Counted from the first letter of the stretch, positions 8,501-34,437 are shown. The stretch: DNA of 34,437 bases from Seison nebaliae (GCA_023231475.1 JALJEE010000072.1:1-34437); one strand, 5' to 3'. Notes: generated from the sequence alone by a model not told the origin. Made by a program: numbers and translations.

Positions 8501-8697
8501 TCTTCACATCGAAGAGAAACTCCAACAATAAAACTTTTCAGATAACGGAACAGAAAGAAAGTCTATTTACGTAAACTTTCACCAGATCGCCTGGTACTCG
8601 TTGCGTGAAAATGGATTAGTGAATAGGAGAGACTAAGTGGAAAAGAATGAATCAAATAAATTTCAGGCTTTATCTGGAACCAAAATTCTAATGAGCA

Positions 8698-9210
8698 ATG
8701 AATGGAATGGGAATTTACGGAATTTTAGCCAATCAATTTGCATTGTTCGGTATGTTGCAGTTGGCAATCGGTTTTATCATTCAACTCTGTTTTTCCAATA
8801 AATTTTTTTCAATTTTTCATTTGATTATTGGCGTTATTATCTTCATTTTGGAATATTGTACGAGTGTAGTCGATGGGATTCCCAATTCATTCAACGAATA
8901 TCGTCAAAGATATTTGGAAAGATATTTTTATGAATATTTATGGAAGTACAATACATTCCTCCTATATCAAATAAAATATCGACCATTCATTTATTTAATT
9001 TTATCTGTTCCATTCTTCTTTTTCATCAGTGCTGCACTCGTTCCAGTCACACTTATCTTATCATCTGTCTTTTACTTCATCTCCACAATTCTTATGAATG
9101 AAACTTTCATTTCAAATTATCAACATCAATTAGATCGCAAATCCCAACAACAACAACAACAGTATATTATATCTACTCCATCGAAAGCTCCGGAAAGGAT
9201 AATCATTTAA
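8698..9210 (+). CDS. CYBA: p22phox (cytochrome b-245 light chain)-like NADPH oxidase subunit, divergent, intronless
   Basis: Motif order matches p22phox: AN..AL, ILEY, Q.Y, R..IYLILSVP, S..Y....E, and a remnant of the Pro-rich region (TPSKAPER). 170 aa with multiple TM segments. Confidence 0.7.
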   Translation: MNGMGIYGILANQFALFGMLQLAIGFIIQLCFSNKFFSIFHLIIGVIIFILEYCTSVVDGIPNSFNEYRQRYLERYFYEYLWKYNTFLLYQIKYRPFIYLILSVPFFFFISAALVPVTLILSSVFYFISTILMNETFISNYQHQLDRKSQQQQQQYIISTPSKAPERIII

Positions 9211-9374
9211 GTGAATTGCAAACTGAAATTTTTTTACGTAAATTTCTCATACATTTATTTTCGTAATTCAATTGAAAAATTCTTTACATTTTATTTTATA
9301 TATTAGATTCGTCTCCGATTTCTTACATTTTAGTTGTAGGGAAATTTGTATATGGAAATAGATTGAGAAGAACT

Positions 9375-12142
9375 ATGAAGTTTGCCGAACATCTGGGAAC
9401 TCATTTAACCCCCGAATGGCGTTCCCAATATATTCGATATGATGTTGGTATTTTCAATAAATATAAATTGAATTAGAAATGTTGAAGGATATGAAAGAAA
9501 TATTTTATGCTGCTGAGAAAGCTGCTCCAATCTCAGCTGACGGTTATTATTTGGATTAAAAAAAGTGATTTCTCATCTTTATTATTTAGCGGACGAAGAT
9601 GCTTATTTGAAACATATGTTCTATATGGAATATGATGAGAAATTTTTTGCATTTTGTGAGAAGGAATTGGCGAAAATAAATGCATTCTTTTCCGGTTATT
9701 ATTTTTTGAATTTAAAAGAAGAAAAAAGTAAATTTGTTTTTAGAGAAATTAGCAGAAGCAATTAGACGATTGATGATATTAAAATCAGAATTGCAGAAAG
9801 TGCATGAAGCACAAGAACGAAAATCGATCGAAAGAAAATCGAGAAGACAATCGTTCGCTTCAGAGTCAGCTCTAGATAAAAATGAAGGAAGTAGTGGAAG
9901 AGAGGAATCGAATGGATTATTTCGACGTGTCCAATTTCAAAGAGATGTTGTGGAAAAAGATGAAATTCAAATAAGAAAACTGAATAAATTGAAAATAAGA
10001 AAATTGAAAGATATGAAATTTGCCTTCAGCGAATTCTATTTATCATTAGTTCTCCTCCAGAAATATCAGTTACTGAATTTCACAGGATTCCGAAAAATTT
10101 TAAAAAAACATGACAAAATCTTCATTACTGATCGAGGAGCTGAATGGCGAGAGAAATATGTGGACACATCAAAATTTCATATATCAAATGAAGTTAATCG
10201 ACTGATTACTGAAGTGGAGAATATTTATATTAATCAATTGGAAGATGGTGATAGAGCTAAAGCAATGAAACGTTTACGTGTTCCTCCATTGGAAGAGAAA
10301 CAAAATCCGATATGTCTCTTCCGTGTTGGCTTCTATGCAGGAATTGTTATGGTAGGAATTCCATTGTTAATTTTGGTAGCAATATTCGTTGAGAGACATG
10401 AAGAGATCCGTTCAGCTCTCATCATTTATCGTGGATGTTTCGTTTTAATTTTGATGTTATTATTAATTGGTTTAAATACTTATGGATGGAGGAAGGCTGG
10501 TGTGAATCATGTTCTCATATTTGAAATCGATCCAAGACATCATCTCACTCAAACACAATTATGCGAAGTTATTTTTAATTTTTGTTGTTGTTATTGTTGT
10601 TGAATTGTTTGATATTAGTTATCTCTTTTATTGATGATCGGTTGGATGGGAAGTTTATTATTATTCTTATGGTCAGATCGATTGAATTTACAACGAGATA
10701 TTCATCCATTGGCTTTCATTATTCTTATGATTCTTTTCTTAATCAATCCGATTCATATCTTTTATCGTAAATCACGTTATTGGCTATTGAATATCATTGT
10801 TAGTATTAATAATGATAGAATTTGAAAAATTTATATATTCTTCTTTTAGAAACGAATTTTTGCTGCTCCATTTTATCCGGTGAAGTTTGCTGACTTTTGG
10901 TTAGCTGATCAAATGAATTCGTTGGTGAGCGTATTTGTCGATTTCCAATTTTTCGTCTGTTTCTATTCCATCGAAGTTTCCTGGCTCTCATCCTCCTCAT
11001 CCAGTTTGAAATATTTTTATTCTCTATTTAATGTTTAATCCATTGAAAGGTACTGGAAAATGTTCGGGAATTGTTTATGGAATAAAATCCATTTTTCAAT
11101 GTCTGCCAGCATGGTTTCGATTTGCCCAATGTCTCCGTCGTTATTATGATACGAAGCAAGCATTTCCACATTTGGTGAATGCTGGGAAATATTCGACAAC
11201 ATTTCTTGTTATTCTCATGTCATCGATTCTTACGGAAACTAGCAGTTCATAATTTCTTTCATATCGAATTATTTTCAAATTTTAATTTTTGAAGAAGATA
11301 GTGATCATTCGAGACGTAATGCTGCACTCTATCTATTAATTATAGCGAGAATCGTTTCCTCAATTTATACTTATACATGGGACGTGAAAATGGATTGGGG
11401 ATTATTAGATACTAATCAGAAAGATAACACATTCTTACGAGAACAAATCGTGTACGAATATAAATCATATTATTATATTTCGATAGTGGGCGATTTGATT
11501 CTTCGCTTCTCGTGGATAAGCCAAATGCCTTTCTACTTCCTCTCATATAACTATATGAACAAAGATGTACTTGATACAATTCTTATATTATTAGAAGTGA
11601 CCAGGTATGTTCTATTTATCTTTTCATTAGAAATATGATGGTTAAAAAAGTGAGTTTGGTTGAAGGATAAAATTTAAATTATCTCCCAATATACTCCTCT
11701 CTTAATTTAATTGGAAAATTTTATTATCTAAAATGAGGTTTGTCCATAAACTGTTTCTTCAACATTTAACTCAAATTTCATGTCCATCGGACAATGTTTG
11801 TCGTTTTGGATATGTTAATTGATTGTCGATGAACTTGAGACCAGTGACACAACCTTTTCAGATATTAAATTTTTTCTACTACCATCTCGATAATCACTAC
11901 GTATATATGTAACTATAAGAATCAATAAAATAATTTTTATTTTCTTCTAATTCTAAAGGAGATTCGTATGGAATTTCTTTCGGTTGGAGAACGAACATCT
12001 CAACAATTGTGGTATGTTCCGAGCAGTACGAGACATTTCCATTATGCCAATTAAAGAAGGTGAAGATATCAATTTTGAGGATGAGCATGATAATGAACAA
12101 GCAGCACCTAATCCTCCGTCGTCAACAGAAATGGATGTTTGA
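9375..12142 (+). CDS. XPR1: SPX-EXS phosphate exporter XPR1; 9 exons (9375-9443, 9488-9542, 9590-9694, 9744-10567, 10619-10798, 10850-11003, 11050-11244, 11295-11604, 11959-12142)
   Basis: [110 protein letters not shown]. All junctions are in phase. Confidence 0.97.
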
Positions 12143-13332
12143 TCGAACTAATTTGTTGATTGATTTATTAAGTCGAATTCTTCCCAATAATTCACAGCAG
12201 ATTCGAATGAACATTTCTTTTTTCTAAAGATGCGAGTGAACCTGATTCAGTTTCGATAATAGTTTCGTTGTTTTATAAAATTTTTAATTGTGAAAAAAAT
12301 GACACTTCAAATTAACAATTGATTTAATGTTATTGATAGCATCTTTACCATTGCTTGCTCCTTTCAAACTGAACGACTAAATATAATAAAGTTTTGTTAT
12401 GTCGTTCAGTATTTTTTTTCTACTTTCGTCTGACTCGAAGGTTTCGAATTGAGAAGTGTCGTTTGTGTAAGAGATATGAATGAATGATTACGATTAATTA
12501 ATTAGCATATTATTTAATTAGTAAATGTAAGCAAATTCAATTGCATGAAACTCATATCAGTATGAATAATTAGATTAGAATAATTCAATAGACCGGAAGA
12601 AATTCGTAAGAAGTAAAAAGAATCGATGAAAATTCATTCGAGAATTCTCTGATAGTTGAACATCGAAGAGTTCAAGGAAACTGAAATAGATCTGTAGTAA
12701 CTATCTCTCCCAATTTATCTTTACAGTAGTAGATCCGTAGGAGATAAATTAGTATGTTTGGGAAGGGAAAAAGAAAACCGGATGAATAATTAAGAAATTT
12801 GTTAAGATATGATAGAGTTTAATTGAAATGAGATAGAAACTAATTTGAGAAATTGATATAGTCGAATAAGAAATTGATTATTAATGAAACTACTTCAGTG
12901 AACGTTTAATGAATCACATTAATCATACGACAAAGGAAATTTTGAAAATTTTCATCTGTTTTCATTTCTCTTCGCTTCTACTACTATCTCTTTATCATCA
13001 TCTTCAAATTAATGGATTGATCGATTTATTAATTATCGCTCGAAATTATTTGATATTGTGATATGTTGTAGGAAATGAAAAGAAGAATTGATTTTAATAG
13101 CATTATTAAATATTTTCTTTTTTTGTTAATAATCACAATGCCATTTATAACCAGCATAGATAATGAAATCAACTAAACTAATTTATATCTTTCTCCCATT
13201 TTTTGTCATACAATATTGTACGATATTCTAACATCTGATGTGTTTATTTGAATTCTGTTAGATTTAACGTTTGATCTTTTATTTTAGTGGATTTACAATC
13301 GCCATCAAATTTCCTTTATATCCTCCTTCATT

Positions 13333-14429
13333 ATGGCCACATTAACCCTGTCACGAGGTATGTTTAAACCGGATGAATGGTCATCAAATAGAAATCGAGA
13401 AATTAGTCGTTTGTACCCTCTAATGTACAGTTAGTAATTTTATCTAAAAAATTTTAGATTTCTCATTCCCGCCATAAGATGTTATGATTCTTATTATTTA
13501 TTTTAGAAAGTTTTAGTTAAAATTAATAAAATTAAAAATTTGTTTTAAGAAAAAGACCAAACAGATAAGAATTACACATAATTTTCGGCTTTGATGATAA
13601 GTTAAAAAGTGTTTTAATGACTCTACTCATATTGATGATTGAGAATGATGACATCATTCATATAATTATACAAATATATCTCCCAAAACTTAAATTAGCC
13701 TTCATTTATTACTTTATGAATATTTTATCAATGAACAATATCAATCATCTAATACATCGGAAGTCGATGTCGTCTCAACATCGATGAATTATAAGAACTT
13801 TTTGTAACAACAAATCATTTATCTAACAATTCGTAATTCTCTAAATTTCATTGAACGAATATTAGCGATGCTCTTGTCTATTGATTGTGTATCAGGTAGC
13901 GAGATATCCAGATATTATCACGTAACAACATTTAGATTAATTTAAAAATTTTTTGTTTTCCAATAGATCGAGAACCTAGAAGGCGACAAGAAACTTATGT
14001 GAAGATCGACCGATTGTTAGGAGAAGAATTATTGAAAACCAGAAGACGTCAGAGATTCGGTCAATCTAAACAATTAGTGAAACCATCACAACGATATGCC
14101 ACGTTCAACAATCATCCTCCTTCAAAGAAGAGACAATTGAATAGAGAACGAAGACCCAACTCAATCAAACGAACTAAATCGACAATGACTTACATGAATA
14201 ATCAATTGCCACAATCTTATTATTATTATTATGATTATGGAACTGGTCAATACGTCTACTATCCATATATGGTCAACCAGAATCCAATCAATCAAACTCA
14301 AATAATACAAAATTCACAATCTGCTCCCATCAATTTCCTCGGTCAACAATCCACCCAACTACCTTCACATTCGATTTCTACTGTTCAACAACCCACATTA
14401 TTATCCCAACAACCAACACATCAACCCCT

Positions 14430-14460
<31 letters not shown>

Positions 14461-16068
14461 ACACAACAAATAGGAGGAACAACAATTGCAAATTTACAAT
14501 CTTTATTTCAATCAAAATTACCACTACAAGGACAACAACAACCAATTAGACCAAATCTACATCGAAATCCAAAGCCACAACGTCATTTTAGTACAATCAA
14601 TCAACAGCCGACAATATATCGAAATACTTTTGGAAGTGTACCTTGGAATGATGAAAGGAATAAAGATTTTAATCAAAATTATGATGATTGGAATTATGAT
14701 CACCCGACAATTACACAACCAAAATTATCGAATAGTTACGCAACTCTGAAGAAAGTTATAAAGAGTAATTCTCCATTCTCCTCATCGATCAAAGATGTAT
14801 CGCCCTTATTAGATAATGGAGTAAAATATGCATCATTAAATAAACGACAAAAGACTCCTAAACATTCTTCCACTGTTATCAATGTGGAATCATTCTCTAA
14901 ATTGCCTCCTAAAAATTCGTTATATGGGAAAGGTGTGATCGAAGATGGGAATGATGATATTAATTATGTTATGGATAGTATTCATCGAATAAGTTTCCAA
15001 AATAATAATGAAACGAATAAAGAAACGAATTTTTATGATCGAGTTTATTCGACTGCTTATGGAACATTAAAGAAAATGAAGAGGCCAACAATCTTTGATA
15101 TCTTCCCTCGAAATTCGTTAAAACATTCGAAAACCGAATTAAATTTAGATCAAAGAGAAAACGGATTAAAATGTATTGCTCGACAAATTATCAGGAATCG
15201 TTCTCATGAAAATGATGTAATTTCGTCTATCAGTGATTCGAACAAGAATCGAAAGAAGAAACGACGTTTAGCTTATTTTAGTATTGATCGAAATAAGAAA
15301 AATGTTTCCGGTTCTTCTTTCAATCCATCCACTTCGACTATTATGGAAGAAGATCTTTCGAAATTAATCGATTCCCAAGATAACACAAATAATTCTAATG
15401 AGAACTACGAGCAAAATTTCAATATGAACAACAAACAAAATCAATTTGATACAAATTTCTTATCAAATCAATACACTAATTCCTCTTTTTATTCGAATAA
15501 TACAATTCGTCAAATTCCAATTAACAACTCTGTGTCAACTCCTTCATCTCCGATTATCGCAAAATCGGAAGCCGATATCAAAAAAGAAAAGGAAGTCATC
15601 AAGGAACGTATTAGGCAATCGGTTATGAAAATATTTGATCTGAAAGATTTCTACGAATGTAATGACATGAAATTCATCATTCGAGAAATCGAAGAAATGA
15701 TTCAAGAATTCCGCATTAATCGCAGTCGAAATAATTCCATTAGTCGAGGAACGCTACCCGATTTAGGTAATGCTTGTAGAACAAGTAACTTATGTTCTCT
15801 TAATTCCATGTCTCTCGTTTGTTGTCGACGTGTGTTAATGTCACTCGGTGTGGCCGAACCAATAGTGACAGAAATTATTCATTCACTGACACTCATCAAA
15901 TTGATGGAAAAGAAATCAGGTTCTTTTATTATTTCTAATCAAAATCGAAAGTTTAAAAAAATTTCATTTTCAGATTCAACCGTGCGAGAAAATCGTCTAA
16001 CATCAGCAGAATTAATACAATTTCTAATGGTGACACAATTTATCGACCGTCCACCACCAAATCCATAG
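13333..16068 (+). CDS. Orphan Gln/Asn-rich low-complexity protein with helical C-terminal domain; candidate first exon from ATG 13333 spliced to acceptor 13966; probable 54-nt intron 15920-15973
   Basis: 689-aa ORF 13999-16068, open back to the TAG acceptor at 13966 (phase 1). Two phase-1 donors follow ATG 13333 (13358 GTATGT, 13430 GTTAGT). The 5' end is uncertain. Confidence 0.7.
14431..14460 (+). repeat. (CAA)10 microsatellite encoding poly-Gln
   Basis: Read directly from the sequence. Confidence 0.95.
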
Positions 16069-16920
16069 ACTATTTTTCTTTTTCATTTTCATTCCAATCT
16101 ACTTTTCTCTCTTTATGAACACTTTAATACAATTGTTCAGTTTCAATCCGTTCCCAAAAAAGAAGAAAACCATCAACATCGACTGAATACAGAAAATTAT
16201 TACTATCCTTCTTTTTTCCACTTAATAAACTTTTTATTATTGAAAACACTTTTCTTTTTCTCCAAAAATTTCCCCAGAAAATATAGTCATCCATCGGACA
16301 GATTAGAAGTGTCGTGGTCAATTTATTTTACTGGAAAACTAATTTAAAAAAGAATTTGAATAAAACTGAAAATTTATCAAAAAATTATTTTGGTTGAGAT
16401 TAAAATCTGTACATGTGGAATAATGAAAAGATTTTGAATGAAATTGAAAATAAAATAAAAGTAGAACTGTTCAAATGATGATTGTAAGATTTTTGTGAAA
16501 TGAACTGAGAAATAATAAGCAGACTATGCAGAAAAACGAATGTTAAACTTGAAAATTGTAGAAATAAAATATTTTGTGGAATGGAAAAACTTGAAGATGA
16601 GAAATCGTAATAATAAACGTAAAAAAGAAACTGAAGATTCGGATGAAAAAATAAAATATGAAGAAATAATAAACTGTAAAATAGTGAAAAAATAATAATG
16701 AAAATGTAGAGGTAAGTAGTGCAGAAGAGAGAAGTATAATTGTTCGGAAATGAGAAAAGTATTAGAAATCAGAAAAAGGAATGTTCTTTCCTTTTCTTAT
16801 TCTGGGAAGAAAATGGAGAATAAATAGAATAAATTAAATGAAAGAAAATTGAGAGAATCGAAGATATTCTTCAAGTTATTATTCGAGTTCCATCATCAAC
16901 TGATGCAAACCGACAATCTA

Positions 16921-19713
16921 TTAATCTTTGGATAATTGTTGAACTTTCAAAAAGATTTTCGGATTGTTTCCATTTGTCAACGATAAAGTTGTTGATGTTG
17001 GTCTATTCTTCGTTTGTATTGGAATGGATTCATTTGAATTTGACATATGAATAGACTCGGAAGAAATGGAAGAATCCATATGTTTCCCAACAGAAATTCC
17101 TCTTAATAGTGGATCATCATCTTTGGGAAGGAGAATTTCATGAAATTCTAAAGACAACGGAGTACAATCATTCATATCATAAGATCCATCTTCTGACGGT
17201 TTCCCGAAAAAGAAATTCTCCATCGAAACTGGAATATGTCGATCATTTTCATTTGAAATAAATCTGGGCTTAATCACCGTTTGAGATTGTAATATATCGT
17301 CGTTCTGAAGAGGATGAATAATATCATTCAAATTGGATTGGAATTGGAATGAATGATCGCCACCAAAACAGAATTCACTTGATGATAAATCGGTTGCAGA
17401 TCGACATGATTCGACTTTATTACAAGACGATATACAATTGACAAATTCAGATGATCCAGAATCGTAATCGGAATATTGTTTACCAGTCGACAGATTAGAA
17501 TTAAGTGACAAAGATGAATTAGATGTATAAAAAGATTGAAGATTTGAGAAGACGTCGTTCGATTTAGAATGATATAACGATTCGAGAACGTATGGTGCCA
17601 ATGTTGAAGTGGAGATGGTTGGTGAAGTAATGATTGAACCATTCGACGGTGATGTAGTGACAATAGTTCGAGGAATGATATTACAAAGTAATTCATTTGA
17701 ATTTGAAATTAAATAAGGATGTGTTGAGATATTTGTATCAGATGTGGAAGTGGATGAAAATATATTTGATGAAGATAAATTATTATTAATATCGTTATTC
17801 ATATTCTTATGATTATTATCCATATTCGTATTATTATTAATCATTTTACCCGATCCACGATTGTTGTTATTATTCATCATCAAATTATCATTATGATTAG
17901 AGCGAATTATCGGATCTGAATAATATGTCTGTTTTGTGAAATGATCAATATCTCCATCATTATTCCAATAATTTGTTATGCTACTACTAATAGTAGGAGG
18001 GATAGATGGAACATGTAAATTGTCCCGATTCATTTCAACTAAATTTTCATTTGAACGAGTCTCTCCATTCGAATATTGTTCATCCGTCAATTGTTGTCCT
18101 ACTGGTACTGACGTTTGATTATTCGATGAAAATTTATTTAAAGAATTCTCCTCAATATTCTTGTTGGTCTTCTTGATGAGATCCAACATCTCTCGAGATT
18201 GACCATAAAAATTCTTTTGAAACAAAACATTAATTGGAGGAAGTAATGATGACATTCCAGGATCTTTCTGGAATTGCTGAGTGAGTGCACATGCCTCATA
18301 ATTATTCACAGTCGATTGAGCACTAACTGATGGAAATTGAACTGCTAAATTACATTTTAATGTATTTCCATTCACCCCTTCTTGACCGTTAGAAGAAATA
18401 ACGGTTGATTTGGATCGACATCTCTTCTTGACAGGAGTCTCATTACCATTCTGATGAGTTGCACCACCAAAATTCTCATTATTCTTCTGTTCATTCCCAT
18501 ATGTCACATAAATGTTACTACAATTGTTGTTGCAATTGTTTGGTAAGTTCTGAACAACATCGAATGAATTAGATTTAAATAAAGTTCGATTCTCATAACG
18601 ATTCTCATCATTCTTTCCACCACCACTACCACCACCTTTCTTTGTTTTATTCAATTTCGTCTTCTTTCCACCTTTATTATTTCCATCAATTATCGCCACA
18701 GGCGTTCGTGTTACTAAAGTGATAGCATTACCATTAACAACATGATTATTCATCGTATTCACATCATACGAATAACAAGTACGTGGTTGAGCTGAAGTTG
18801 TGGAAGATCTTGTGGGACGTGAAACTGCTGATATTTGCATCATCGGAATCGTATCATAAAGAGGTGGTCTCAATCGAATTTCCATCGGAATATTCTCCAA
18901 CAATCTCACTGGAGGAACGATACTTTCCAACTGATCTTTCGTCTTATTATAATTCCGTTTTCGAACGGTAGAATTCCAATGATTCTTTACTCCATTATCA
19001 GTTCTAATCAAATTGAGAATTAGAAGAATAATAATTAATTTAAACCTTCCTGGAATATATTTTGCAATTTCTGCCCATCGATTTCCCAAACGTCGATGTA
19101 AATAAACAATCGCATCATTCTCCTCTTCAGTCCAAGGATCTTTATTGATATCAGGACATAAATGATTATGCCATCTGGAGAATTATCAAATAATTCATTG
19201 TGAATTAAGAATAATGATGAAAAATAAACCGTTCTCGACATTGCTTCCCAACTCGACCTTCTAAATATTTTGCGATATTTGACCAATTTCTAGGTCCGAA
19301 TCTATTCACTAATCGTACCATTAACTCATCCTCCTATAAGGAAGAAAGAAATGATGAGAATACATTTCAAATAATTGAACTTGTTTCGACCATGGTCCTT
19401 TGATGCAACGCTGTTTATTCACTTGTTTCCATTGTTGTTCACATTCCTCCGGTGTTACATTAGTTCCCATATATGAAGAAATGGCAATCCATTTGTTAGT
19501 GCCAAATTGTGTCACCAACTGTCGGAGAATCATCAACTATCAATGGAAATTGAATAAGAATAATAAAAAGAATATGATAAATGAAATAACTTCTCGACTC
19601 GTCCAAATGTGAGATGATTCAACATTTGTTTGCTTTTGATGCAAATTAGTGATAAGTTCACTTTTCACCTTCTCTGGTGAAATGATGGAAGACGATCTTT
19701 TTGGATTTCTCAT
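16921..19713 (-). CDS. MYB: Three-repeat (R1R2R3) Myb transcription factor; 5 exons (19713-19591, 19536-19381, 19333-19230, 19174-19046, 19003-16921)
   Basis: WTSRE..W....W (R1), KGPWSKQEDEL...[30 protein letters not shown] (R2), WTEEE...[27 protein letters not shown] (R3). Introns of 54, 47, 55 and 42 nt. Confidence 0.93.
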
Positions 19714-20330
19714 TTTATAACTGACTATGAAGAATTTGAAACGAGATAATTTCAAATTTGAATTTATAGTGAGAATGGAAATAAAAATAAAGTGATTGAA
19801 GAAAAGAAGGAAAACTTGATTAAGTTTTGAGATGAATACTCATCCACAGGAGAGTAACGACTTTAAAAGAGTATACGTGTAATTATTGATTGGAAGTGGA
19901 AGAGATGTGAATTTGGAATTAATAAAATTTTCTTAATTTGGATAATATTGAAATTGAAGAACAGAAGAAATTGACGAATATTTATAGATCTCTATATACA
20001 CGCAAGAGATAGGATTGATGCAAATAGCAGTAAATATGAATAACCGTTAACTTCTTCTATTCGATCCCATCTTACTCTCTTGCACCCATCATTCTCGATA
20101 GACTAACAGACAAAAATGATGTCATCAGCTTATCGTCACTTATCGGTGGACAGCTTAACTTTGAAACATTTCCAACTTTTCAAATTTTTTCTTCTTTTAT
20201 CACCATTTTCTCATGTTTTCCGATGCTTCCCTTTCTTCTCTCATCATTCTCCAGTGACAACCTTATGTCATTCTTAAACTATTGATCTATTCCTCTCCAA
20301 ATGTATAGAATAGAGATTTTTCTCCATCTC

Positions 20331-20344
20331 GTTGTCATGGCGAC
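20331..20344 (+). promoter_or_regulatory. RFX X-box upstream of BBS7
   Basis: GTTGTCATGGCGAC fits the X-box consensus (GTNNYY-AT-RRNRAC), 73 bp before the ATG of a ciliary BBSome gene. Confidence 0.8.
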
Positions 20345-20416
20345 GTATAATATTTATTTTTATTTTCTAAAAAATTTTTTTTATAAAATTTCTTCAATCT
20401 TCTATTGGCAAGTTTC

Positions 20417-23018
20417 ATGGAGAACGAATTGTCTCGAATTGATTGTTTTCAATCGAATGGAATTAATAAGAATTGTATGAAAATTTTCAAAGGTAAGAAA
20501 GATGAGAAAATCTGTTATGCTGACAAGGATGGTCTCATCTCATTCTATCAATTGAATACAGGAACTTTGCAAGTTCGTTTCAACTTTTTACTAAAGTTTA
20601 AGAAATTTTTGAAAACAGAAATCATGGGAAGTAAATATTGGAGAAAGTGTGGAATGTATTCGTCTTATCAGAAAGAACGGAGAGTCGTTGATGGATCGAT
20701 TTTTTGTATTAACTCAAAAGAATATTTGTGGATTCTCGAAAAAAGGCAAAACATTTTTCCAACTATCACTCCCATCAACCATTCAAGAAGTAAAGGATTT
20801 GTTTGAACAAACTCTGTTTAAAAAAAATAATCATTCCCTTTTTTTAAGTATAATTGTGGATGCATTCATTCATGTTCTCAGTCAAACTACTTACTATTTG
20901 TATGAAGGAGCAGAATCCATAAACAAATTATCTATTAGTAGTGGTGCAAATGCATTAATCGATCTTTCTCCTTCTCACATATTAGTCGTCACTGATTCTC
21001 GTTCAATCGTTTTAATCGAAGTTTTATATTTTACTGATAATTTTTAAATGACAATTTATTATAGAACGGAGAGTTGTTGGATGAAATTGATTTCCAATCA
21101 GGAACAATTGTAAAATTGGTTAAATGTAAATCATTCCGAAACAATCCGAACGATTTGATTTTTGTTACGAATGAAGGTATTTTTGGATTTTGCACATTTC
21201 ACCTGTTATTATACTTATAAAAAAACTGAAATTTCAAATGTTTATTTGTGAAGGAATGAAAAGATTTGTCAAATTCATTGGACAATTGAGAACGATCGGA
21301 ATAACTTTAATTCCTCAATCACTTCTCTAGTCGTATTTGATATAACTGGAGATGGAATTGATGATATAATTGTTGGTCGATCAAATGGAAATGTTCACGT
21401 TTTCTGTTTCCCTTCCGATGATACAACATCGCAACCCCTTCAACAATATAATTATGTTAATTCCATTTATTTTTGTTATTCATTAAAATTTCTTTTCTTT
21501 TCATGCAAAGATCGGAAATGAAAGTGTTGGATCATTAGATTGTGGTAGAATAAGGAATAATAATTTGGATGAAATTATTGTAACAACACAACAAGGATGG
21601 ACATTCTCTCTTACCATACGTGACGAATCAGTAACGAATTCATTTGGTTCCAATTTAGAAAGAATTAATCAATTACAGTTCACATTTGAAACAATTTTTT
21701 TCATCTTTATTGCTAATTTACAGGAGAGATGTAGAAAATTTGGAAGTAGAATTAAAACATAAAAAATCGATATATTATTCGCAATGTAAGAAAGAAAACG
21801 CCATGGCTGCATTACCTTCATTCCGTATAACATCAACAATGGAATTAAAAGAATCGACTGCTTCGTATGTCCTAGAAGTTAAAATTTCTTCCAATATTTT
21901 AATATATTAATCGGTTACTTACTAATGTTCCAGATCGAATGTGAACATACAATTGATCTAATATTGTTACAATCAGATGTACCCATTGATGTACTAAATC
22001 GAGATACAAACGCTGCTGTTATCAGTTTTAGTGATTTGTCAGATTCAGTTAATATTTTAAATTTTCCATTTTTTAATCAATTTTAAAGGAGGAAAATCAT
22101 TTGTTGGCAACTTATCGATGCCAAATGAACACGAATCGAATTGAAATTACGATAAGAACTGTTGAAGGTCAAATTGGTGACTTGACTTGTTATGTTACTC
22201 CGAAAATTGTACCAAAAGTTTGTCGCACTGTAGCATGGAAAATACTTCCATTATCTCTACATGCACCGAGATCAAATGTTGACAGAAGTTCTTTAGAGTT
22301 GAAAGAACTGCATTCTTTAACATTCGAAGGACAATTTAGTATTCAACAACCACATTCTTGGCTGTTACTTATTCTACCAAAATTAACTACTAATACTCCC
22401 CAAAATTCGACTCAACTTGTCCACTACATCAACACATTTCTTCAAACTCATCTTTATATTCAATTTAAGTTTCTTTTGTTTGTGTTTTAGTTCGATTTGA
22501 TTGATTTCTAATATAAAAGTGAAAATAAATTGGAATTCTTCTCCGACAATATTTCCACAATAACAATCTTGAAAGATGCTGTTAGTCGTCAAGCAACTTT
22601 GGCATCAGTTAAATTGAAAATAAATTTTCACATATCTCAAATCGCCTTGGAAAAAACTTTGGAGAAAGTTCATCCATTATTGCAACATCAGAAGGATTTG
22701 TTGAGGAAGAAACAGATGATTGAACCGATTCGAGAAATTATTCAACATGAACGAATTGAACGTCCGGAAGTTAAAGCGGAAGAATGTCTATCAAAACAAT
22801 TCCTCCATCTTTATCAACATTCCGATGAAGTAGAAGAAGAAGCAGAACGATCACCATCACATCTTCAACGACTTTTTGGAATGATTACTGATCTTTACAT
22901 CGATCAACATAAGATGCATGGAACAAACGTTAAAAGTCGAATCAATGAACTTAATTCAATTTTAGAAAATTATTCATTCGATCAATTATTATCATTCTTT
23001 CTTTCAACTTCTACCTAA
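20417..23018 (+). CDS. BBS7: Bardet-Biedl syndrome 7 protein; 10 exons (20417-20572, 20619-20800, 20849-21020, 21065-21204, 21254-21455, 21511-21677, 21724-21877, 21934-22047, 22089-22468, 22520-23018)
   Basis: LSRIDCFQ, GFSKKGKTF, FDITGDGIDDIIVGRSNG, LLQSDVPID, LATYRCQMNTNRIEITIRTVEGQIG, FFSDNISTITILKD, LQRLFGMITDLYID. All junctions are in phase. Confidence 0.95.
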
Positions 23019-23383
23019 TAATCAAAAGAACAGTTTACATGTATTTTAATGAAATGATAAGAATGATGAGAATAATTATTTCCGTTGATCAAAAACAAGA
23101 AACAGAACATGAAATTGAAAACAAAAAATTATTGATATTTATTTGTGATTCTCTTCGCAATGATTATAATTTTGTCGTTTCGTTTTTTCATGGAAATAAT
23201 TATTTTTGTTGTCTCCATTTCTTGTGAAATTTTAACAAAATCGAACTGAATATATTTGAAGTTGTTTCATGGGAAGCATTGGAAGAATGAATTATTGCCA
23301 ATTGATGAATAGTTTCTCTTATTCATCATTTCAAATAAAAATTTACACATAAAATTTTATCGACAATATTGTTTAACAAAATA

Positions 23384-23419
23384 ATGATGATGATGGTGGT
23401 GATGATGATGATGATGATG
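23384..23419. repeat. Imperfect (ATG/GTG)n trinucleotide microsatellite between the convergent BBS7 and CK1 3' ends
   Basis: atgatgatgatggtggtgatgatgatgatgatgatg. Confidence 0.9.
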
Positions 23420-23822
23420 TTGAATCCATAAGTATCCAATAAATATCAGTTTTTTCTTTTGTATTCTACAAAATTCATGTTGTCGATAAAGAGGAAGATA
23501 AGACGAGAAATTAGATAATTATCATTCTTACAATTTTCATAAATTTTTTTAATGATTATTCATAAGAAACTATAGAAATAGCAGAAAAATAATGTGATGT
23601 GAAAAATTAATTTTTTTTAAATTTTTAGAAATTTAATGTTCAACAAATTATCAGTTCGTGTGATATAATAAAGAATAAGAAAAAGGAGAGCGAGAAATAG
23701 AAAAGAATAAAATTTATCCATGATTCTTATTTGTCACTGAATTCTATTCATGGCAATGGAGACGTAAAATGAGGAAATTAAAAATTGATAAAATTCGTTT
23801 TGTTCAATAAGTTAAATGAATA

Positions 23823-25120
23823 TTAACCTGCACTCGCTTCTCTGGTGAAGACGGCCGTTCCATTGCCTTCACCATTCGTTGTACCATTGGATTGGAAGTG
23901 ATTAACATCATTCGACTTATTTCCCTAATAATAAATAAGAAATAAATAAGGAAAGTGAAAACTAACAAATCTGATGAGATTCCAGTCAAACATATAATCG
24001 TAAGTGAATCCTTTACGAGCAAAGAGATTCTTGAATAACGTTTGTAAATATAAATAATTTGGTGTTCCTTCGAAACTTAACGATCGACAATATTGGAGAT
24101 AAAGTGAAAATTCACCTAAAATTAAAGATGAATATTTTTTACTTTTTTATAAGAAACTAACTGGGATATCCTTCACACAGATCACTGACATGAGTATTCG
24201 CTTTCTTTTCACTAATCTTCTCATACTTTTGTCGTTTCGTCGCCGCTTTCAATCCTTGCCATGGAAGACTTCCTCGATTAAAATACATGAGAACATATCC
24301 CAACGATTCTAAGTCATCTCGACGAGATTGCTCTAAACAGAAATTGAGTTTTTTTTATTCCATAATTATTTTCACTTGAAATTCCTCTAACCAATTCCAC
24401 TATGTGTATTAATCGATGCATATCTTGCTGTTCCAGTTAAATTTTTATTTTCTTTATATGGAATATGTCTTTGGCGACCATCCCGATATTTTTTCGCTAG
24501 ACCAAAATCAATAATATATACCAGATTACCTGAATTCATTAATTTCTTATAAAATTACAAAATTGTCAATGAATATTTAACCTCGTCTTCCAAGTCCCAT
24601 CAGGAAATTATCTGGTTTAATATCGCGATGGATGAAATTTTTACTATGAATATAATCGATTCGACTAATCTTGATTTATACGAATAATAATAATATATTT
24701 AAAAAAATTGATGATTTATAGAAGAATAAAAGAAAACCATTTGATGTGCAAGTAATAAGACAGTTTTTAAATGAAATTTTCGATTGCAGAAATTGAATAA
24801 ATCTTCCAAACATGGACCTAATAATTCCATGACCATTACATTATAATCTCCTTCACTTCCACACCATTTCAAATTAGATATTCCAATGCCACCTATGGAA
24901 ATCATAGGAAACGGAAAAGAAGAAGAGAAAAAATGAAACCTTTCATTTGTCTATAGATTTTCGCTTCGATATGTAACTGAGGATGTTTTGTTCGTACACA
25001 TTCCAATTTGATAGCGACTTCTTCATTCTTCGTAGTATCCGTTCCTAAATAAATATCACCAAATGATCCAGATCCGATTTTCCGTCCGATACGGTAACGA
25101 TTGCCCACTCTCAATTCCAT
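23823..25120 (-). CDS. CSNK1D: Casein kinase 1, delta/epsilon type; 7 exons (25120-24940, 24892-24738, 24669-24582, 24529-24392, 24332-24162, 24115-23967, 23924-23823)
   Basis: [94 protein letters not shown]. The end of the last exon is uncertain. Confidence 0.96.
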
Positions 25121-28007
25121 GACGATTGGAGAGGATGCAAATCTGTGAATGACAATATAAATATGACGATAAAATAAATGGAATTTGGAAGAGTAGAAAT
25201 AAATTTAGTAAAAATCAAATTAAATTAAGAATAAGTACTTTAATCGTTTACCGACCAATTAATGAGTAACGTAGAGTAATTTAAATTTAATCGTATTTAA
25301 GATCAAGAAACGAAATCGTGTTTACATAATACTTATTGAAACTATTAAGAGAACGTACAATCATCGTTGTTCAGACAAATGAAACACAAACAGTCCAAAC
25401 ACTAACAACAATTAGAAGAGACATTTTTATTTCCCATTGGAAAAGAAAGAGAAGATCGAAGAACAATTATTAAAAATAATGTATTTCATAATGGATGTGG
25501 GAGAACGAATTAACTCCCGGAATTTCCTTTCACATATTTATTTCCTTATTCAATCAACTAAACATAATAACACATTCAAAATTGAATGTTGTTGTTGTTG
25601 ATTCAAAGCTAAAAGTTTCCATTAATTCATTATCTCACAACTTAATGATTTTCAGAGAATTAATTTACTTCATAATTTAATATTCAGTAACTTTATCAAC
25701 AAAAGATCAGCTTTTATTTCTGGACTAAATGAAATTATTTTTCTAATCAATTTCTATAATCATCCATTATTGATCATTCTATCACCTGCAGAGGAAGAAG
25801 AAACACTACTTCCAAATTAAGCTTTCTCTCACATATTCATTCATTTATCGTATGAGTAGTACGTACGAGAAACAATTATCGGACTTTCACATACGTATTG
25901 ACAAATAATTTGCTTGTTTCCCATGTACGTAATTAATAGTTATTAGTAGGAAAATTGATCACAAAACGAATCGTAATAAGTTTAATAAATTTATTATGAC
26001 TCACCTGAACCTCGAGGAAATATTTGTTTTTATTTGATATTGTTTCCTCCCAAAAAAATCAAAGAATGCCAATTGGACTTTCCAAACAATTCTCTGTGTT
26101 CGATAACTAAATTATTCCTTTCACTTCTTTACGATTGTGTTTTTATTTTCCTTTCAGAATACATAAACAATAGTATGAATTTCATTCGGTTAATGTCAAA
26201 TTGTAAAATATTGCACAATAAAACAATTATACATTAAATATTATAGTTCTGAAGTAAAGATTATAGGAAAAGAGTAATTTCCTATAATATAGTAGTATAT
26301 ATAATATAACAGATCATCATAATACATCAAATAGTCTTATAATCAAATTGGAAAAAATTATATTAGAAAAAGAAATTATTTGGAATATAATTATATCAAT
26401 TTAAAAGAATAATAGATAATTGTATGAAGATAATCCGACGAATAAGCAAGCTAATAGTATTAATTTATCCTTCCACTATTTGTCTGCTTCAGATCATTTT
26501 ACTTTTTTTTTAATTTCCCACTAAATTAACTTTCAATTTTTATTGATTATTTTGTCTTTTTAAGAATTAACAAACATTAACTCAATGTGATTAATAATGA
26601 TTTTATTTTAATTTATTTAGTCAAATTTCAGTTTGCAATCATTTATATAATCATCGATATAATAAGATATATTGAGTATAAGCGATGAACGATTAATATA
26701 TGACAGATATGTTAACGAACATTCTCACAGTCTTATTGTTGAATATAAATAAATTGTAATTCTAGTTTCGTAATTCGACCACATTCGTATTTCATTCGAG
26801 AAGGACGAAATGTATGAAGACTAAAATAGTATAGAAATGCTTTAATGAAATTTTGCGCTAGAATTCATTTAGAACTAGCAGTCCCTGCGGCATAAGAGAT
26901 AATATGGATAATATAATCACTATCAAATAAAATTTTCTTCATTTGGACTCAAATATGCCCTTTGTCCTTTAATGTGTTTGGATAGAAATAATTGAAGGCT
27001 AATGAAATCATGCAATCGTCCTAGTTGACGGAATAAACCGATAGAATTAAATATCTGTCTCTCTTGTTCCAATCTAATCACTAGATTATTACATGCGAAA
27101 ATAATAGAATGGCATGATATTACAGATTCTCTACATGAATTTTTTATATCATTTTGATAAGTTTAGTAGTAGAGGAAATAGAGTGAATGTTAAACGAAGA
27201 AAACTCACCTAACTTTCATATGATATTCCAATTGGTTTGAAATAGAGTTTGATAGGAGATGTATTGTCGAATTCGGAGCTTAACTAAAAGTGGTCTAAAT
27301 GAAGATGATATTTTTGTATTCATATTTTTCCTCAAAATTATAAACCGAGTATTTATTAAGGACATTGTAATATGAAGATGGTTGAGTGTGTATTTGTGCG
27401 AATAGAAAAAATGTTCAAGAATTCTCTTCTTTTAACTTTTCTTTACATTCTTTTGTTAATTTGACTCCTAATTATTCTTGAAAATATCTCATCTACTCAA
27501 CTTTCCATATTCTAATATGTTATTCCTGAGAATTTCGGATAGAATATATTATAAGAATTATTTATCGATTAAACATTATTCAACTAGATGAACTTTCACT
27601 GTTAGCACACAACATAGTATTCGATTAGGTGTTTCACATCTGGGAATATCGATGAAGAAATTGATTATTTCACTTCCACGTATATGTGTAGGAAATTGAA
27701 GGTAGAGGAATAGTGAAGAGAACACTAGAAAAGAACCAGCTGTTGATATTCATTCATATAACATTTATCAATTTAAATTTGCACAAAAAGATTTTTAAAA
27801 TAAATAAAATTCATTTAGAAATTCGTTTTGCGATAAATAGTGAAGATTTCCTTCCGTGAAATCTCCCGTTGAGTTGGAAAGAAATAAATTTGCTTTTGGA
27901 CAATTTTTAACGACAATTCGAATCATGCCAAAGTGAAAAAAGAACATTTAATTTTACTTTTTCGACATTCTATGTCGATTTCATTTATTATGAAACATCA
28001 TTGAACA

Positions 28008-31000
28008 ATGAGTACACTTAGTTATCGATCGATATCATTAGATTCAATTCTAACATTGACGAATGATAATCAATTTGAAAGTTTTAAGAAGAAATATCTA
28101 AAGGAGAAATTGGATAACTTGAACAAGAATTTCCATGGAAGATCTAGAAGAAAGATGGATGGATTTGTTTTCTTGAACGATCATAAATTATCTGATCAGA
28201 ACAAGAAGAAACTGTTCAATGATCTTGATGTCAACTGTAATAACAGTAATTGTGAAGAGAATGATTGTGACAATTCGTCTCAATCTCAATCGCTTTCACA
28301 AGATACCATCTTTTCAAATTCACTCAATGACGATGAAACGGATAATTCATTTTGTAATGAAAGACCAACGAGTGATTCATTTCTTGATCGGAAAGATGTT
28401 TCTCCTCCCAATAACGTGTTCGTCGAGCGGAAAGATTTAAACAAATCGATGACGAGTAGTAATGAGAAATCTTATCCACCTAAAAAGAAACGAGCGAATG
28501 CTTGGTATAATGTTAGATAAAGTTGTTCCTCTCACATAATTCCACATTTCTCTCAGGCTTTCAATCCAACATATAAACAAAAGAATACTGAATTCCATAA
28601 ACTATTCAAATCAATCCCTTCAAAAGAAACACTTCTAGTCGGTTCGACTATTCTTAAAAATCATAATTATCTAAATTCTCCTTAACTTAAACTTTTTTAG
28701 ATTATTCTTGTGCGTTACAAAAAGACATTTTACTACACGGTCGTCTCTATGTAACAAATGCAACAATTTGTTTCTACTGCAATCTATTTGGATGGGAAAC
28801 AAACGTCTCTTTTTCTTCTTCTACTCCATATTCTAATTCTCCCATAGATTTGTATTCCAATAAAAAATGTGGACAATATTACAAAAGAGAAAACTGCAAA
28901 ATTCATTCCAAACGCCATTCAAGTTTTTCTTGTTTTTTCATAAAACACGAAAATTTCTTTTAACCTTCTTAAAATCAGATTGTTTTGAAAACAAAAGAAA
29001 AATATTTTTTTACCAGTTTCACTTCACGAGAGAAGACATTTGTCATGTTGTTTCGCATCTGGCAAAATTTCTTACTAAAAAAAGTTTTTTTTTCTTTCAA
29101 TAATCTTCATCTTGAATGTTTGGATTGTAAAAAAAACTTATATGAATTTTTTTTACAATTTCTTCTCTTTGTTCAAACTTGTATGGATTCGTTATTCTAT
29201 TCTTCTTTTTCATTCTGGGAAAATGTTGTTGAGAATAGATTAGTATTCTCCAAGAGGTAAATCGATGTTGTTTCTCTTTACTTCCATGAGGAGAATGTAG
29301 TTTCCTTCATATTTTTTTCTTTTGATGTTTTTCTTTCTGCTTTCAGAAGATGCATCTTCATGTCAAATTTAGATCAATAATTTGAGTTTTTTTTTAAGTT
29401 CATTTTTTTGTTTGGTGATGAAAAGGATTTCACGTATTTTTCTTTCTTCCTCACTATTTTTTCTAATCAGGAAGAGTTAATTATTTTTCTTCTCTAGCCC
29501 ATGTCACATGACGAATTGTTAACTTTATTGAAGTTACATTATGGGGATCAGATAGACAAAGATTCAATTAGTACAATATGGAATTTTGAAAGCGAAGATT
29601 CTCCATCAGACACTGATGGTTCTTTTCTGTCTGAGAAGAAAAAGTTAACATTCTCTATAATCTTTAAATAATATTTTATAATATAATTAAAGTGGCACAG
29701 AAAATAAATTGAACGAGAAGAAGAGAATAGTTTTGTCGAAGAAGAAACAAGTAATTGTTCAGAATTTGGATGATTTAAATGTGAATCAGAATTCTTTATT
29801 TTCTTCTTCAATTAAACACCAATTGAAAAATGAAGATAATCAGAGAGTTCTGAAGAAAGGTGATTTACCAAATAATCTCTTTTTACAAGTCCCACAAAAA
29901 AAAGAGAAATTTGATGGGGATTCATCGGATTATCAGAAAAGAATTCCAAAAAGAGTTAAATCGGAAATTATCCTTAAAAAACGATCATCTGACATTAATC
30001 CATTGAATGAAAGTTGTTCATTTAACAATCGAATACTTTCTTCAACGAAGCCATATGTCGCTAAGCCAATAGACCAATTATGTAAGATGGTATGTGAAAA
30101 TGAAGAATCGAAATTGGATTCGGGTTCATATCAATTGATGGAAAGTTTAAATTTATTTGAAAAAAAAAAAAAGAAATATTATATTTAAAAATTTAGAAAA
30201 AATGGCAGGTAATTCGTTTGAGGAATTGGAGAATAATGTTCATTGTGATTGTGATGATCATTTACCGATCAGTTATTTGGATGAAATATTTGAAATCGAA
30301 TTAGAACATTTGTTCAAATACGTCGCATTAAATTCGACATTTTTTCGCGAATATTGCAAATCGACAGGAAGATCGAATGTCACTTATACTAAATGGCATA
30401 GACATCGACAGAAAGAACCTTCATCATCTGAAGTGTCATCTGAACCTTTCGATCAGACATGTAATGACAGTGGAGTAACAAAGACATTTAATGTATCAGA
30501 TTCTGGTGAAGAAATTAATGAGAAGAAGATTCAATCGATAATTGATGATGATGATTTGTATAGAACTGATTCGTCTGATCTCGAATCGATTACTCCACAT
30601 CATAAGGAGAAGAATGAAGAGATGAAGAAACATTTATGTCAAATGACATCAATTCCATCATATGTATCTCATGTTCGTATTTTGAGTTATGTTATTTCTA
30701 TTCGAGCAATTATGGTTAAACGTGTTACCACCACAGACGTACAAGTTCAATATTTGATAATGATTTATTTTAACATAATTTAATTTTAGTATATTCATAA
30801 AAAATCGAAAAAAAATCATCGATATATTATCGATTCGAAAGCCACATCTGCTGGAGTGTTATATGCGGATTGTTTTTGTGTATCATCCAGATTCTGTCTA
30901 ACGAGAATCGATAATCATCGTTCTCGATTAAGAATCACAGGTGATATTGAACCTATAAAATCTATGACAAATATGGTATTGAATTTCGCCAAGAACGATA

Positions 31001-31738
31001 TTCGAACTCGAGTTCATGCTAATTTCGAAAAATTGAAGAATGTTCTGCTTTCCATATTCATTTCCTTTATAACCTGATTGACATTCATAGAATTTGTTGG
31101 AAGAAGCGAAAAAGAATCGGAAGATGTTGATGACTGTCATTCCTGAATGTAATAAAAGTACAAAATCTGTTTTTTCATCAGATGATGAACAGGAAGATGA
31201 TGATGATGGAAATGATAGTGATTATGAAAATTTGAAAAGTACGAAAAATGATAGCATGAAAAAAGATCTCAATCATCGAAGGAAACCGATTGAAGGAACT
31301 TTATTCACCACTTCCAAGACACAATCAGGAGGAACAAGTGGAAATATGATAAGAAGTCGATTGAATAGTCGAAGAAAATATCGACAAATTGATGATGAAT
31401 ATGATAGAAAACATAGAAATGACAATTTTGAGAATAATACAATTTCTTTCGATGGAATATCAAGTTGTCTTTTCTATCATCATTCCTTCTCTACTTATTC
31501 ATCCCATTAGATATCAACATAACTTTAGGAAATTATTCCATTAAAATGTCAAGTATTATTTTAATTATAACATTCTTGTTAGTATATTCTCAACAACTAC
31601 AGATTTAATTTATATTATTTAATTATTAATTATCAATCAAATAGATTACTTGCAATGATTCTCATTAATATCGTTCTTTATTACAAACTCTACAAAGTGG
31701 AACAAATGGCCGAAGAAATGGCGAAGAGGAGACTCTAA
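28008..31738 (+). CDS. GRAMD1: GRAM-VASt-TM sterol transfer protein GRAMD1/Aster; 12 exons (28008-28511, 28557-28641, 28701-28804, 28848-28922, 28979-29083, 29498-29618, 29701-30144, 30197-30744, 30790-31041, 31091-31463, 31511-31577, 31645-31738)
   Basis: WYNAFNPTYKQKN.EFHKLF, DYSCALQKDILLHGRLYV, KEKTAKFIPNAIQI, KYFFTSFTSREKTF, VASt motif AGVLYADCFCVSSRFCL..SRLRI, and C-terminal TM ILINIVLYYKL. Confidence 0.92.
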
Positions 31739-34197: not shown

Positions 34198-34437
34198 GTC
34201 AATAAAATTTGTGACGATCTAAACTAGAATAAGTTCGATAATTTCGAATAAACTTCATCTTGATCTACTTCGTCAAAAATTGTGTCAAAATAACGGAAAA
34301 CTGTGTTACATGCAAATTTCAAGTTTTTAATTCTGACGGAAGTTGTAAGTTTTAACTACTTTCTATTATTTTTTTACTTCTCTTGTTTTATTTTTTAATA
34401 CTAGTTATCCCCTCAATGGAAAATTTGTCTTATATTA

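Follow-up and report, generated by a model that had tools for sequence, protein, structure and literature searches.

The introns of five genes on a 34,437-base contig of the small marine rotifer Seison nebaliae (the window, analysed over its full length) combine a nearly invariant GTT donor with a 3' end that carries little information beyond the terminal AG, and AAG is common among their acceptors. The reading that we favor, with a probability of about 0.52, is that these are major-spliceosome introns with GTT donors in which the acceptor is the first AG lying 7 to 13 nt behind a close branch point, with little reading of the base at −3. Exon queries matched Seison nebaliae proteins at 99 to 100% identity, and the counted set, resting throughout on DNA-level evidence, comprises 38 introns. 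XPR1/SLC53A1 (SPX+EXS; 9375..12142, plus strand) has 8 introns, with 7 GTT and 1 GTA donors and 4 AAG and 4 TAG acceptors. The MYB-repeat gene (16921..19713, minus strand) has 4 (19590–19537, 19380–19334, 19229–19175, and 19045–19004), all GTT, with 3 TAG and 1 CAG. BBS7 (20417..23018, plus strand) has 9, all GTT, with 5 AAG, 3 CAG, and 1 TAG; the casein kinase I gene (CK1, delta/epsilon-like; 23823..25120, minus strand) has 6, all GTT, with 4 TAG, 1 CAG, and 1 AAG; and the GRAMD1-like gene (GRAM+VASt; 28008..31738, plus strand) has 11, with 10 GTT and 1 GTC donors and 8 TAG, 2 CAG, and 1 AAG acceptors.

The strongest anomaly is the donor, which exceeds the AAG signal and formed no part of the earlier note on this sequence. 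Among the 38 donors, located between 9444 and 31578, 36 read GTT; the exceptions are the GTA of a 354-nt intron and one GTC, and the other long intron, of 414 nt, has GTT. In the control introns described below, GTT was found at 1/33 bdelloid-like donors and 17/115 donors of other animals (p about 1e-16 and 1e-19, respectively, against the Seison count). A purine at +3, as in the typical animal GTRAG donor, occurs once in 38. Position +4 is at background (p = 0.32), while G at +5 persists (12/38 against 2.2 expected), and the commonest donor hexamer is seen in 5/38. On the exonic side, G at −1 is reduced to 10/38, compared with 95/115 in other animals. All 38 introns are GT..AG. The donor consensus of U12-type (minor) introns is RTATCCT, and this extended motif was present at none of the 38 donors. 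From their GT..AG termini and their positions, the 38 introns are classified as U2-type (major spliceosome), and their removal restores conserved proteins. The exons hold 113 GTT..AG decoys, so that GTT..AG alone is insufficient to mark an intron; low G content by itself separates the 36 real introns from these decoys with an area under the curve of 0.95. The idea that a GTTAGT donor might pair with the CTAAT branch motif was rejected on inspection, as 0/5 CTAAT introns have such a donor.

At the other end, the 38 introns close with 20 TAG, 11 AAG, 7 CAG, and no GAG. The earlier note had counted 10 AAG, 20 TAG, and 8 CAG; its ten AAG acceptors (9487, 11049, 11294, 11958, 20848, 21253, 21510, 22088, 22519, and 24670) are all AAG in the gene models and its TAG count holds, but it missed one AAG (29692, GRAMD1-like) and counted one CAG too many. 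In XPR1, the AAG introns are 9444..9487 (44 nt, GTT), which lies at an ancestral position (aa24, phase 0) and skips a TAG at 9476; 11004..11049 (46 nt, GTT); 11245..11294 (50 nt, GTT), with an out-of-frame TAG 7 nt downstream; and 11605..11958 (354 nt), which has a canonical GTATGT donor and also sits at an ancestral position (aa631, phase 2). Those of BBS7, all GTT, are 20801..20848 (48 nt), 21205..21253 (49 nt), 21456..21510 (55 nt), 22048..22088 (41 nt, the shortest of the 38), and 22469..22519 (51 nt), the last skipping a TAG at 22490. CK1 contributes 24670..24737 on the minus strand (68 nt, GTT), whose junction falls exactly between CK1-delta residues 112 and 113 and which has an out-of-frame TAG 5 nt downstream, and the GRAMD1-like gene contributes 29644..29692 (plus strand, 49 nt, GTT), known from the database model only and followed 8 nt downstream by an out-of-frame CAG. 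Thus, AAG is chosen ahead of an out-of-frame YAG 5 to 8 nt downstream in three introns (11294, 24670, and 29692). The AAG frequency of 11/38 is above a rate of 5% or 10% (p = 2e-6 and 9e-4, respectively) and not above 20% (p = 0.16), with a 95% interval of 17 to 45%. In XPR1, the acceptor at 11294 is part of a tandem AAG-AAG (11292–11297, plus strand) whose distal site, 3 nt on, gives one residue fewer and scores 948.4 versus 949.9 bits.

Intron lengths are confined as well: 34/38 are 41 to 59 nt, the others are 67, 68, 354, and 414 nt, and the minimum is 41, which corrects the earlier figure of 33/38 in that range and leaves intact the statement that none is shorter. Four further candidate introns on the minus strand, picked out by eye and unverified, lie in genes with no Pfam match (2359–2320, 2012–1968, 4052–4005, and 5053–5012; 40, 45, 48, and 42 nt). 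They have 3 GTT and 1 GTA donors and 2 TAG and 2 AAG acceptors, and in each the acceptor is the earliest AG beyond 37 nt. The 414-nt intron of the GRAMD1-like gene (29084–29497, plus strand) contains 17 internal AGs and more donor-like sites and may hide alternative exons.

To provide a comparison, we scanned metagenomes with a rotifer XPR1 alignment and obtained 80 loci, of which 79 were aligned; L008 was dropped as a duplicate of L007. The loci were sorted by best homolog and intron positions into 20 bdelloid-like and 59 other-animal loci, so that these labels are inferred, that of L018 from intron position alone. The 47 introns called in the bdelloid-like loci were reduced to 41 by a flank filter and to 33 by removal of near duplicates, and the 230 called in other animals to 135 and then 115. 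AAG acceptors numbered 5/33 in the bdelloid-like set (p = 0.25 against the 11/38 of Seison) and 6/115 in other animals (p = 0.0002), or 8/47 and 22/230 before filtering. Only four orthologous positions are represented in the bdelloid-like set, and its five AAG acceptors are all at one of them, all followed by G; the set is therefore a weak control in both directions. In Seison, 5/11 AAG acceptors are followed by an exonic G, versus these 5/5.

In the Seison introns, the three bases before the terminal AG could not be distinguished from the intron background. The −3 column is A11 C7 G0 T20, where 13, 4.3, 2.2, and 18.5 are expected (p = 0.13), and the 27/38 YAG acceptors are likewise at p = 0.13 against background, in a sample whose size would not reveal a mild preference; positions −4 and −5 gave p = 0.81 and 0.38. 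In contrast, both control groups depart at −3 from their own backgrounds (p = 1e-4 and <5e-5). All three positions are non-random in the bdelloid-like introns, as are −3 and −5 in the 70 short introns of other animals. The pyrimidine excess at −15 to −5 followed the same pattern, with +0.05 in Seison (p = 0.47, n = 36), +0.13 in bdelloid-like introns (p = 0.002, n = 27), and +0.17 in other animals (p = 3e-7, n = 70), bearing out the weak polypyrimidine tracts claimed earlier. A purine-rich context peculiar to the AAG sites was not borne out: pyrimidines at −15 to −4 make up 64% before AAG, 68% before TAG, and 61% before CAG. AAG is frequent in Seison mainly because A makes up one third of intron sequence and there is little selection against it.

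What the end of the intron does carry is a gap and a weak motif. The terminal 10 nt of the 36 short introns contain no further AG, against 6.7 expected (p = 4e-4). CTAAY whose A falls within −8 to −13, the best 6-nt window, is present in 5/38 introns, where shuffling gives a best-window mean of 1.7 (p = 0.0007), and YTRAY in the −7 to −13 region in 13/38, against 8.6 expected (p = 0.017). Neither control set has a CTAAY/YTRAY peak near the intron end, and branch motifs are not enriched at −15 to −25 in the Seison introns. All five CTAAT sites are on the plus strand: 11947..11951 in XPR1, with the predicted branch A at −9 (11950) and acceptor 11958 (AAG); 21713..21717, 21922..21926, and 22508..22512 in BBS7, with the predicted A at −8, −9, and −9 and acceptors 21723 (CAG), 21933 (CAG), and 22519 (AAG); and 28833..28837 in the GRAMD1-like gene, with the predicted A at −12 and acceptor 28847 (TAG). 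In four of the five, the predicted branch A is 7 to 8 nt before the intron end. The motifs before 11958, 21933, 22519, and 28847 had been reported earlier, and the one before 21723 adds to them. Two bypassed TAGs that had been singled out are also real, at 9476 (a 33-nt intron with an in-frame stop after it) and at 22490 (22 nt). The acceptors used are 11 and 29 nt further on, which puts these TAGs at or upstream of the predicted branch point, and for this reason their skipping needs no special mechanism; skipped AGs 11 to 42 nt upstream of the acceptor are ordinary.

The gene models rest on several kinds of comparison. For 32 introns, the boundaries follow from database proteins that map exactly (P0001, P0121, and P0122; the MYB model is identical to P0123), and CK1 supplies the other 6. 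P0001 (XPR1) and P0121 (BBS7) each map uniquely onto the window, with 8 and 9 introns. P0122, identified as GRAM+VASt by Pfam, has 11 introns counting from the ATG at 28008; an alternative mapping from an upstream ATG was dropped in favor of this start, as it needs a 36-nt GA..AG intron. The first six exons of CK1 tile the CK1-delta chain 1cki_A at residues 1–59, 62–112, 113–141, 143–188, 190–245, and 247–295, which fixes five of the CK1 junctions, the AAG at 24670 included. The BBS7 protein aligns with the solved BBS7 across residues 3 to 716, as a whole protein. In XPR1, the annotated donor and acceptor of each of the 8 introns score above every in-frame GT/GC..AG alternative when set against a profile built from 60 non-Seison homologs, the margin being only 1 to 2 bits at 9589 and 11294, where near-equal alternatives exist. 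In spliced alignments, the Owenia and Adineta proteins both recovered 9487, 9743, 10618, 10849, 11049, and 11958; 9589 was recovered with the Owenia protein only, which also yielded two wrong calls, and 11294 with the Adineta protein only. Four sequencing runs mapped across 9200–29199 gave flat, DNA-like cover in which 0/10 listed joints corresponded to an intron, and they have no bearing on splicing.

The XPR1 introns are old. Five of the 8 occupy the same position and phase as introns confidently called in other animals, with 24/0 and 631/2 common exactly to other animals, and for the remaining three, the unfiltered control set has same-phase calls within 0 to 2 residues. These are therefore old introns whose signals have been rewritten. 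The bdelloid-like XPR1 loci (L002–L050) have four intron positions, none common to Seison or to other animals, and it is Seison that keeps the ancestral ones. Mapping at 80% likeness in two runs (X2 and X4) gave low-depth contigs (2.2–3.2) of a divergent lineage, with 19/21 listed CK1 exon differences at third codon positions. One low-depth contig covers the CK1 intron 24161–24116 with 18 substitutions and several indels, keeping GTT and changing the −3 T to C, and another is identical over 24643–24672, AAG included. A full-depth contig in the same runs matches CK1 in two pieces (24595–24659 and 25042–25070) and is likely a second CK1 paralogue.

We hypothesize that each short, U-rich, G-poor intron is recognized as a unit, that the branch A lies 7 to 13 nt from the intron end, and that ligation is to the first AG reached. 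The 41-nt floor would then be a minimum donor-to-branch span plus a short branch-to-AG span, so that skipped AGs would fall at or before the branch point. The loose reading of −3 could stem from relaxed second-step checking (Prp8 alpha-finger, Prp18/Slu7, and Prp22), from U2AF1, or from both, and the U at donor +3 may have its counterpart in an altered U1 5' end, predicted to be ACUAAC, or in another reader of the 5' splice site. In yeast, Prp8 Q1594 contacts the −3 pyrimidine and Q1594A removes selectivity at −3 (bioRxiv 10.1101/2025.06.16.659908). Yeast Prp18 sets a 10-nt minimum from branch to AG, and in its absence AAG is used more and distances as short as 7 nt occur; the 7 to 8 nt of four of the five Seison CTAAT sites are below this natural minimum and within the range of Prp18 loss (PMC10711555). 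Human U2AF1 contacts the last five intron bases (PMC11802449). The premise of the earlier note that YAG is preferred through U2AF is nevertheless incomplete, as yeast, which is without U2AF35 (PMC10158995), has a YAG consensus. Relaxed U2AF is a possible cause, and Prp8/Prp18 and U1 are equally good suspects. We advance only tentatively the fuller picture of a splicing code rewired at both ends, in which U1 would read ACUAAC instead of ACUUAC, a bare AG 7 to 13 nt behind the branch point would suffice, U2AF and/or Prp18/Slu7/Prp8 alpha-finger would be altered or lost, and ancestral introns would have been rewritten in place, not purged.

Several observations weigh against a branch-proximal AG read with little regard to −3. 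The sample is small, with 38 introns drawn from five genes of the window, and the evidence is at the level of DNA. AAG is uneven across genes (heterogeneity p = 0.056), with XPR1 and BBS7 holding 9/11, and its frequency is not significantly above that of the bdelloid-like introns or of AT-rich other-animal loci (2/24, p = 0.06). The value of p = 0.13 at −3 is an absence of evidence, and a mild pyrimidine preference (27/38 against about 23 expected) together with avoidance of GAG is possible. CTAAY near the end is found in only 5/38 introns and YTRAY in 13 to 15/38, leaving most without a recognizable branch site. The low-depth lineage contributes one donor and two acceptors at depths of 2.7 to 3.2, which may hold errors. 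Lastly, the four unverified minus-strand candidates include one short GTA intron and one of 40 nt, which would lower the floor to 40.

A rival view is that the 3' side is simply the ordinary state of an AT-rich, short-intron rotifer, with AAG inflated by composition and a small sample, U2AF and the second-step factors normal, and only the donor unusual. The bdelloid-like XPR1 introns resemble those of Seison in size (26/33 at 45 to 61 nt), 26/27 of them obey a rule of first AG at or beyond 41 nt, and their AAG frequency does not differ significantly; three of the five Seison genes hold just 2 AAG in 21 introns. Yet the AAG acceptors of the bdelloid-like set share a single orthologous position and are all followed by G, against 5/11 in Seison, and at similar AT content, its −3, −4, and −5 columns and pyrimidine tract are significantly non-random, unlike those of Seison, so that we consider this view unlikely, if still a serious one. 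We place clearly lower the strong form of the earlier proposal, a true length ruler that counts off about 37 to 41 nt from the donor and then uses the following AG irrespective of branch sequence. In its favor, each of the 36 short introns stops at the earliest AG located 37 nt or more from the donor, and no AG at 41 nt or beyond is passed over (0 against 6.1 expected, p = 4e-4). The AGs skipped 11, 15, 16, and 16 nt ahead of the acceptor are in every case less than 37 nt from the donor, and a clear branch motif is missing in most introns. However, the 37-nt cutoff was chosen with the data already in view, the rule partly coincides with an exclusion of AGs behind a branch point, and both long introns (354 and 414 nt) break it. 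In the zone where a ruler alone would act (37 nt or more from the donor and over 10 nt before the AG), AG was found at 0/140 versus 11/581 positions (p = 0.09). Nor does donor choice follow a shortest-intron rule, since selection of the nearest GTT giving at least 41 nt was rejected (4 internal GTTs at or beyond 41 nt against 3.5 expected). Of the earlier interpretation, the close CTAAT, the minimum size, the missing pyrimidine excess, and the uninformative −3 are supported, but a ruler is not separable from scanning behind the branch.

Two remaining explanations concern the introns themselves. It is very improbable that the AAG sites are gene-prediction errors with the real acceptors at nearby YAGs. 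In favor of it, no RNA junction was observed, 32/38 introns come from database models of unseen RNA support, and the tandem AAG at 11294 and the alternative at 9589 score nearly equally. Against this stand the profile ranking of all XPR1 pairs, the de novo recovery of 9487, 11049, and 11958 by both the Owenia and Adineta proteins and of 11294 by the Adineta protein, the sharing of 24/0 and 631/2 with other animals, and the residue-exact AAG junction of CK1. Even less credible is that uniform GTT..AG short introns are recent Introner-like insertions whose element ends dictate the signals. The +3 T and the lengths are indeed highly uniform, but for XPR1 this is largely refuted by the shared positions and phases, and the 38 introns have no shared internal sequence, as judged by inspection and not by alignment.

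For the favored reading, in which a bare AG behind a close branch point meets a GTT donor, the closest analogue appears to be Entamoeba, which has donor +3 U, AT-rich short introns, and a branch point near the acceptor (about −8 in E. invadens). Entamoeba differs in being intron-poor, in its strict GUUUGU hexamer (88–90%), and in a documented change of U1 to ACAAAC that matches the +3 U (bioRxiv 10.1101/2022.06.08.495308). Seison, by comparison, has 38 introns in 5 genes, only +3 fixed, G at +5 in 12/38, weak branch motifs, and a U1 change that is predicted. Yarrowia, Debaryomyces, Trichomonas, and Giardia likewise have a tract-less 3' end with a branch point few nt before the AG, but are intron-poor and have a strong branch consensus and constrained spacing (PMC2483917), while Seison has CTAAY in 5/38 and spacing spread over −7 to −13. 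The Seison introns would thus work like short-spacer, tract-less systems and yet fail their strict consensus and intron poverty. Yeast lacking Prp18 or carrying Prp8 Q1594A also uses non-YAG acceptors, chiefly AAG, with branch-to-AG distances down to 7 nt (PMC10711555; bioRxiv 10.1101/2025.06.16.659908); these are laboratory mutants using cryptic sites, whereas the AAG acceptors of Seison are annotated sites of conserved genes. Bdelloid-like rotifers share the 45 to 61 nt size class, AT richness, the first AG past about 41 nt, and an appreciable AAG fraction, and differ in GTA donors (31/33), TAG preference, a T-rich 3' tract, and the lack of a CTAAY peak. For the 16 to 17 nt introns of mikrocytids, a minimum-size threshold has been argued to squeeze intron lengths, but these are protists with a strongly reduced spliceosome (PMC10245619), in contrast to an animal with introns of 41 to 59 nt. 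We found no description of Seison splice sites in the literature outside subscription journals, nor any of its splice signals in the accessible portions of PMC8351084, PMC10125929, PMC7310846, and PMC10639083.

The AAG excess and the size floor are by themselves modest, and they are partly shared with bdelloid-like introns; what stands out is that they occur together with almost universal GTT donors in an animal rich in introns. The observation in the earlier note is in this sense confirmed and its interpretation partly supported. Transformed splice signals have been described mainly in protists and yeasts with few introns, and two origins are under discussion for them, the loss of introns that do not conform and a co-evolution of introns and spliceosome (bioRxiv 10.1101/2022.06.08.495308). 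If the reading is correct, an animal with many ancestral introns, GTT donors, and little 3' information would offer a direct test of co-evolution. Annotation of seisonids would also be affected, as splice models trained on other animals penalize GTT and AAG alike.

Elsewhere in the window, Pfam gave no match for 7 tested open reading frames (ORFs) in 0.9–7.1 kb or for ORFs at 13.9 kb and 32–34 kb, and introns of ORFs without a Pfam match were excluded from all counts; Rfam gave no match in the window or in 9 loci. Two of these ORFs, of 710 and 684 aa (13936–16068, plus strand, and 32164–34218, minus strand), have no internal introns and adjoin intron-dense genes. Just upstream of XPR1, a 171-aa ORF at 8695–9207 (plus strand) is p22phox-like (cytochrome b558 alpha; PF05038, E = 5e-6) and apparently intronless.

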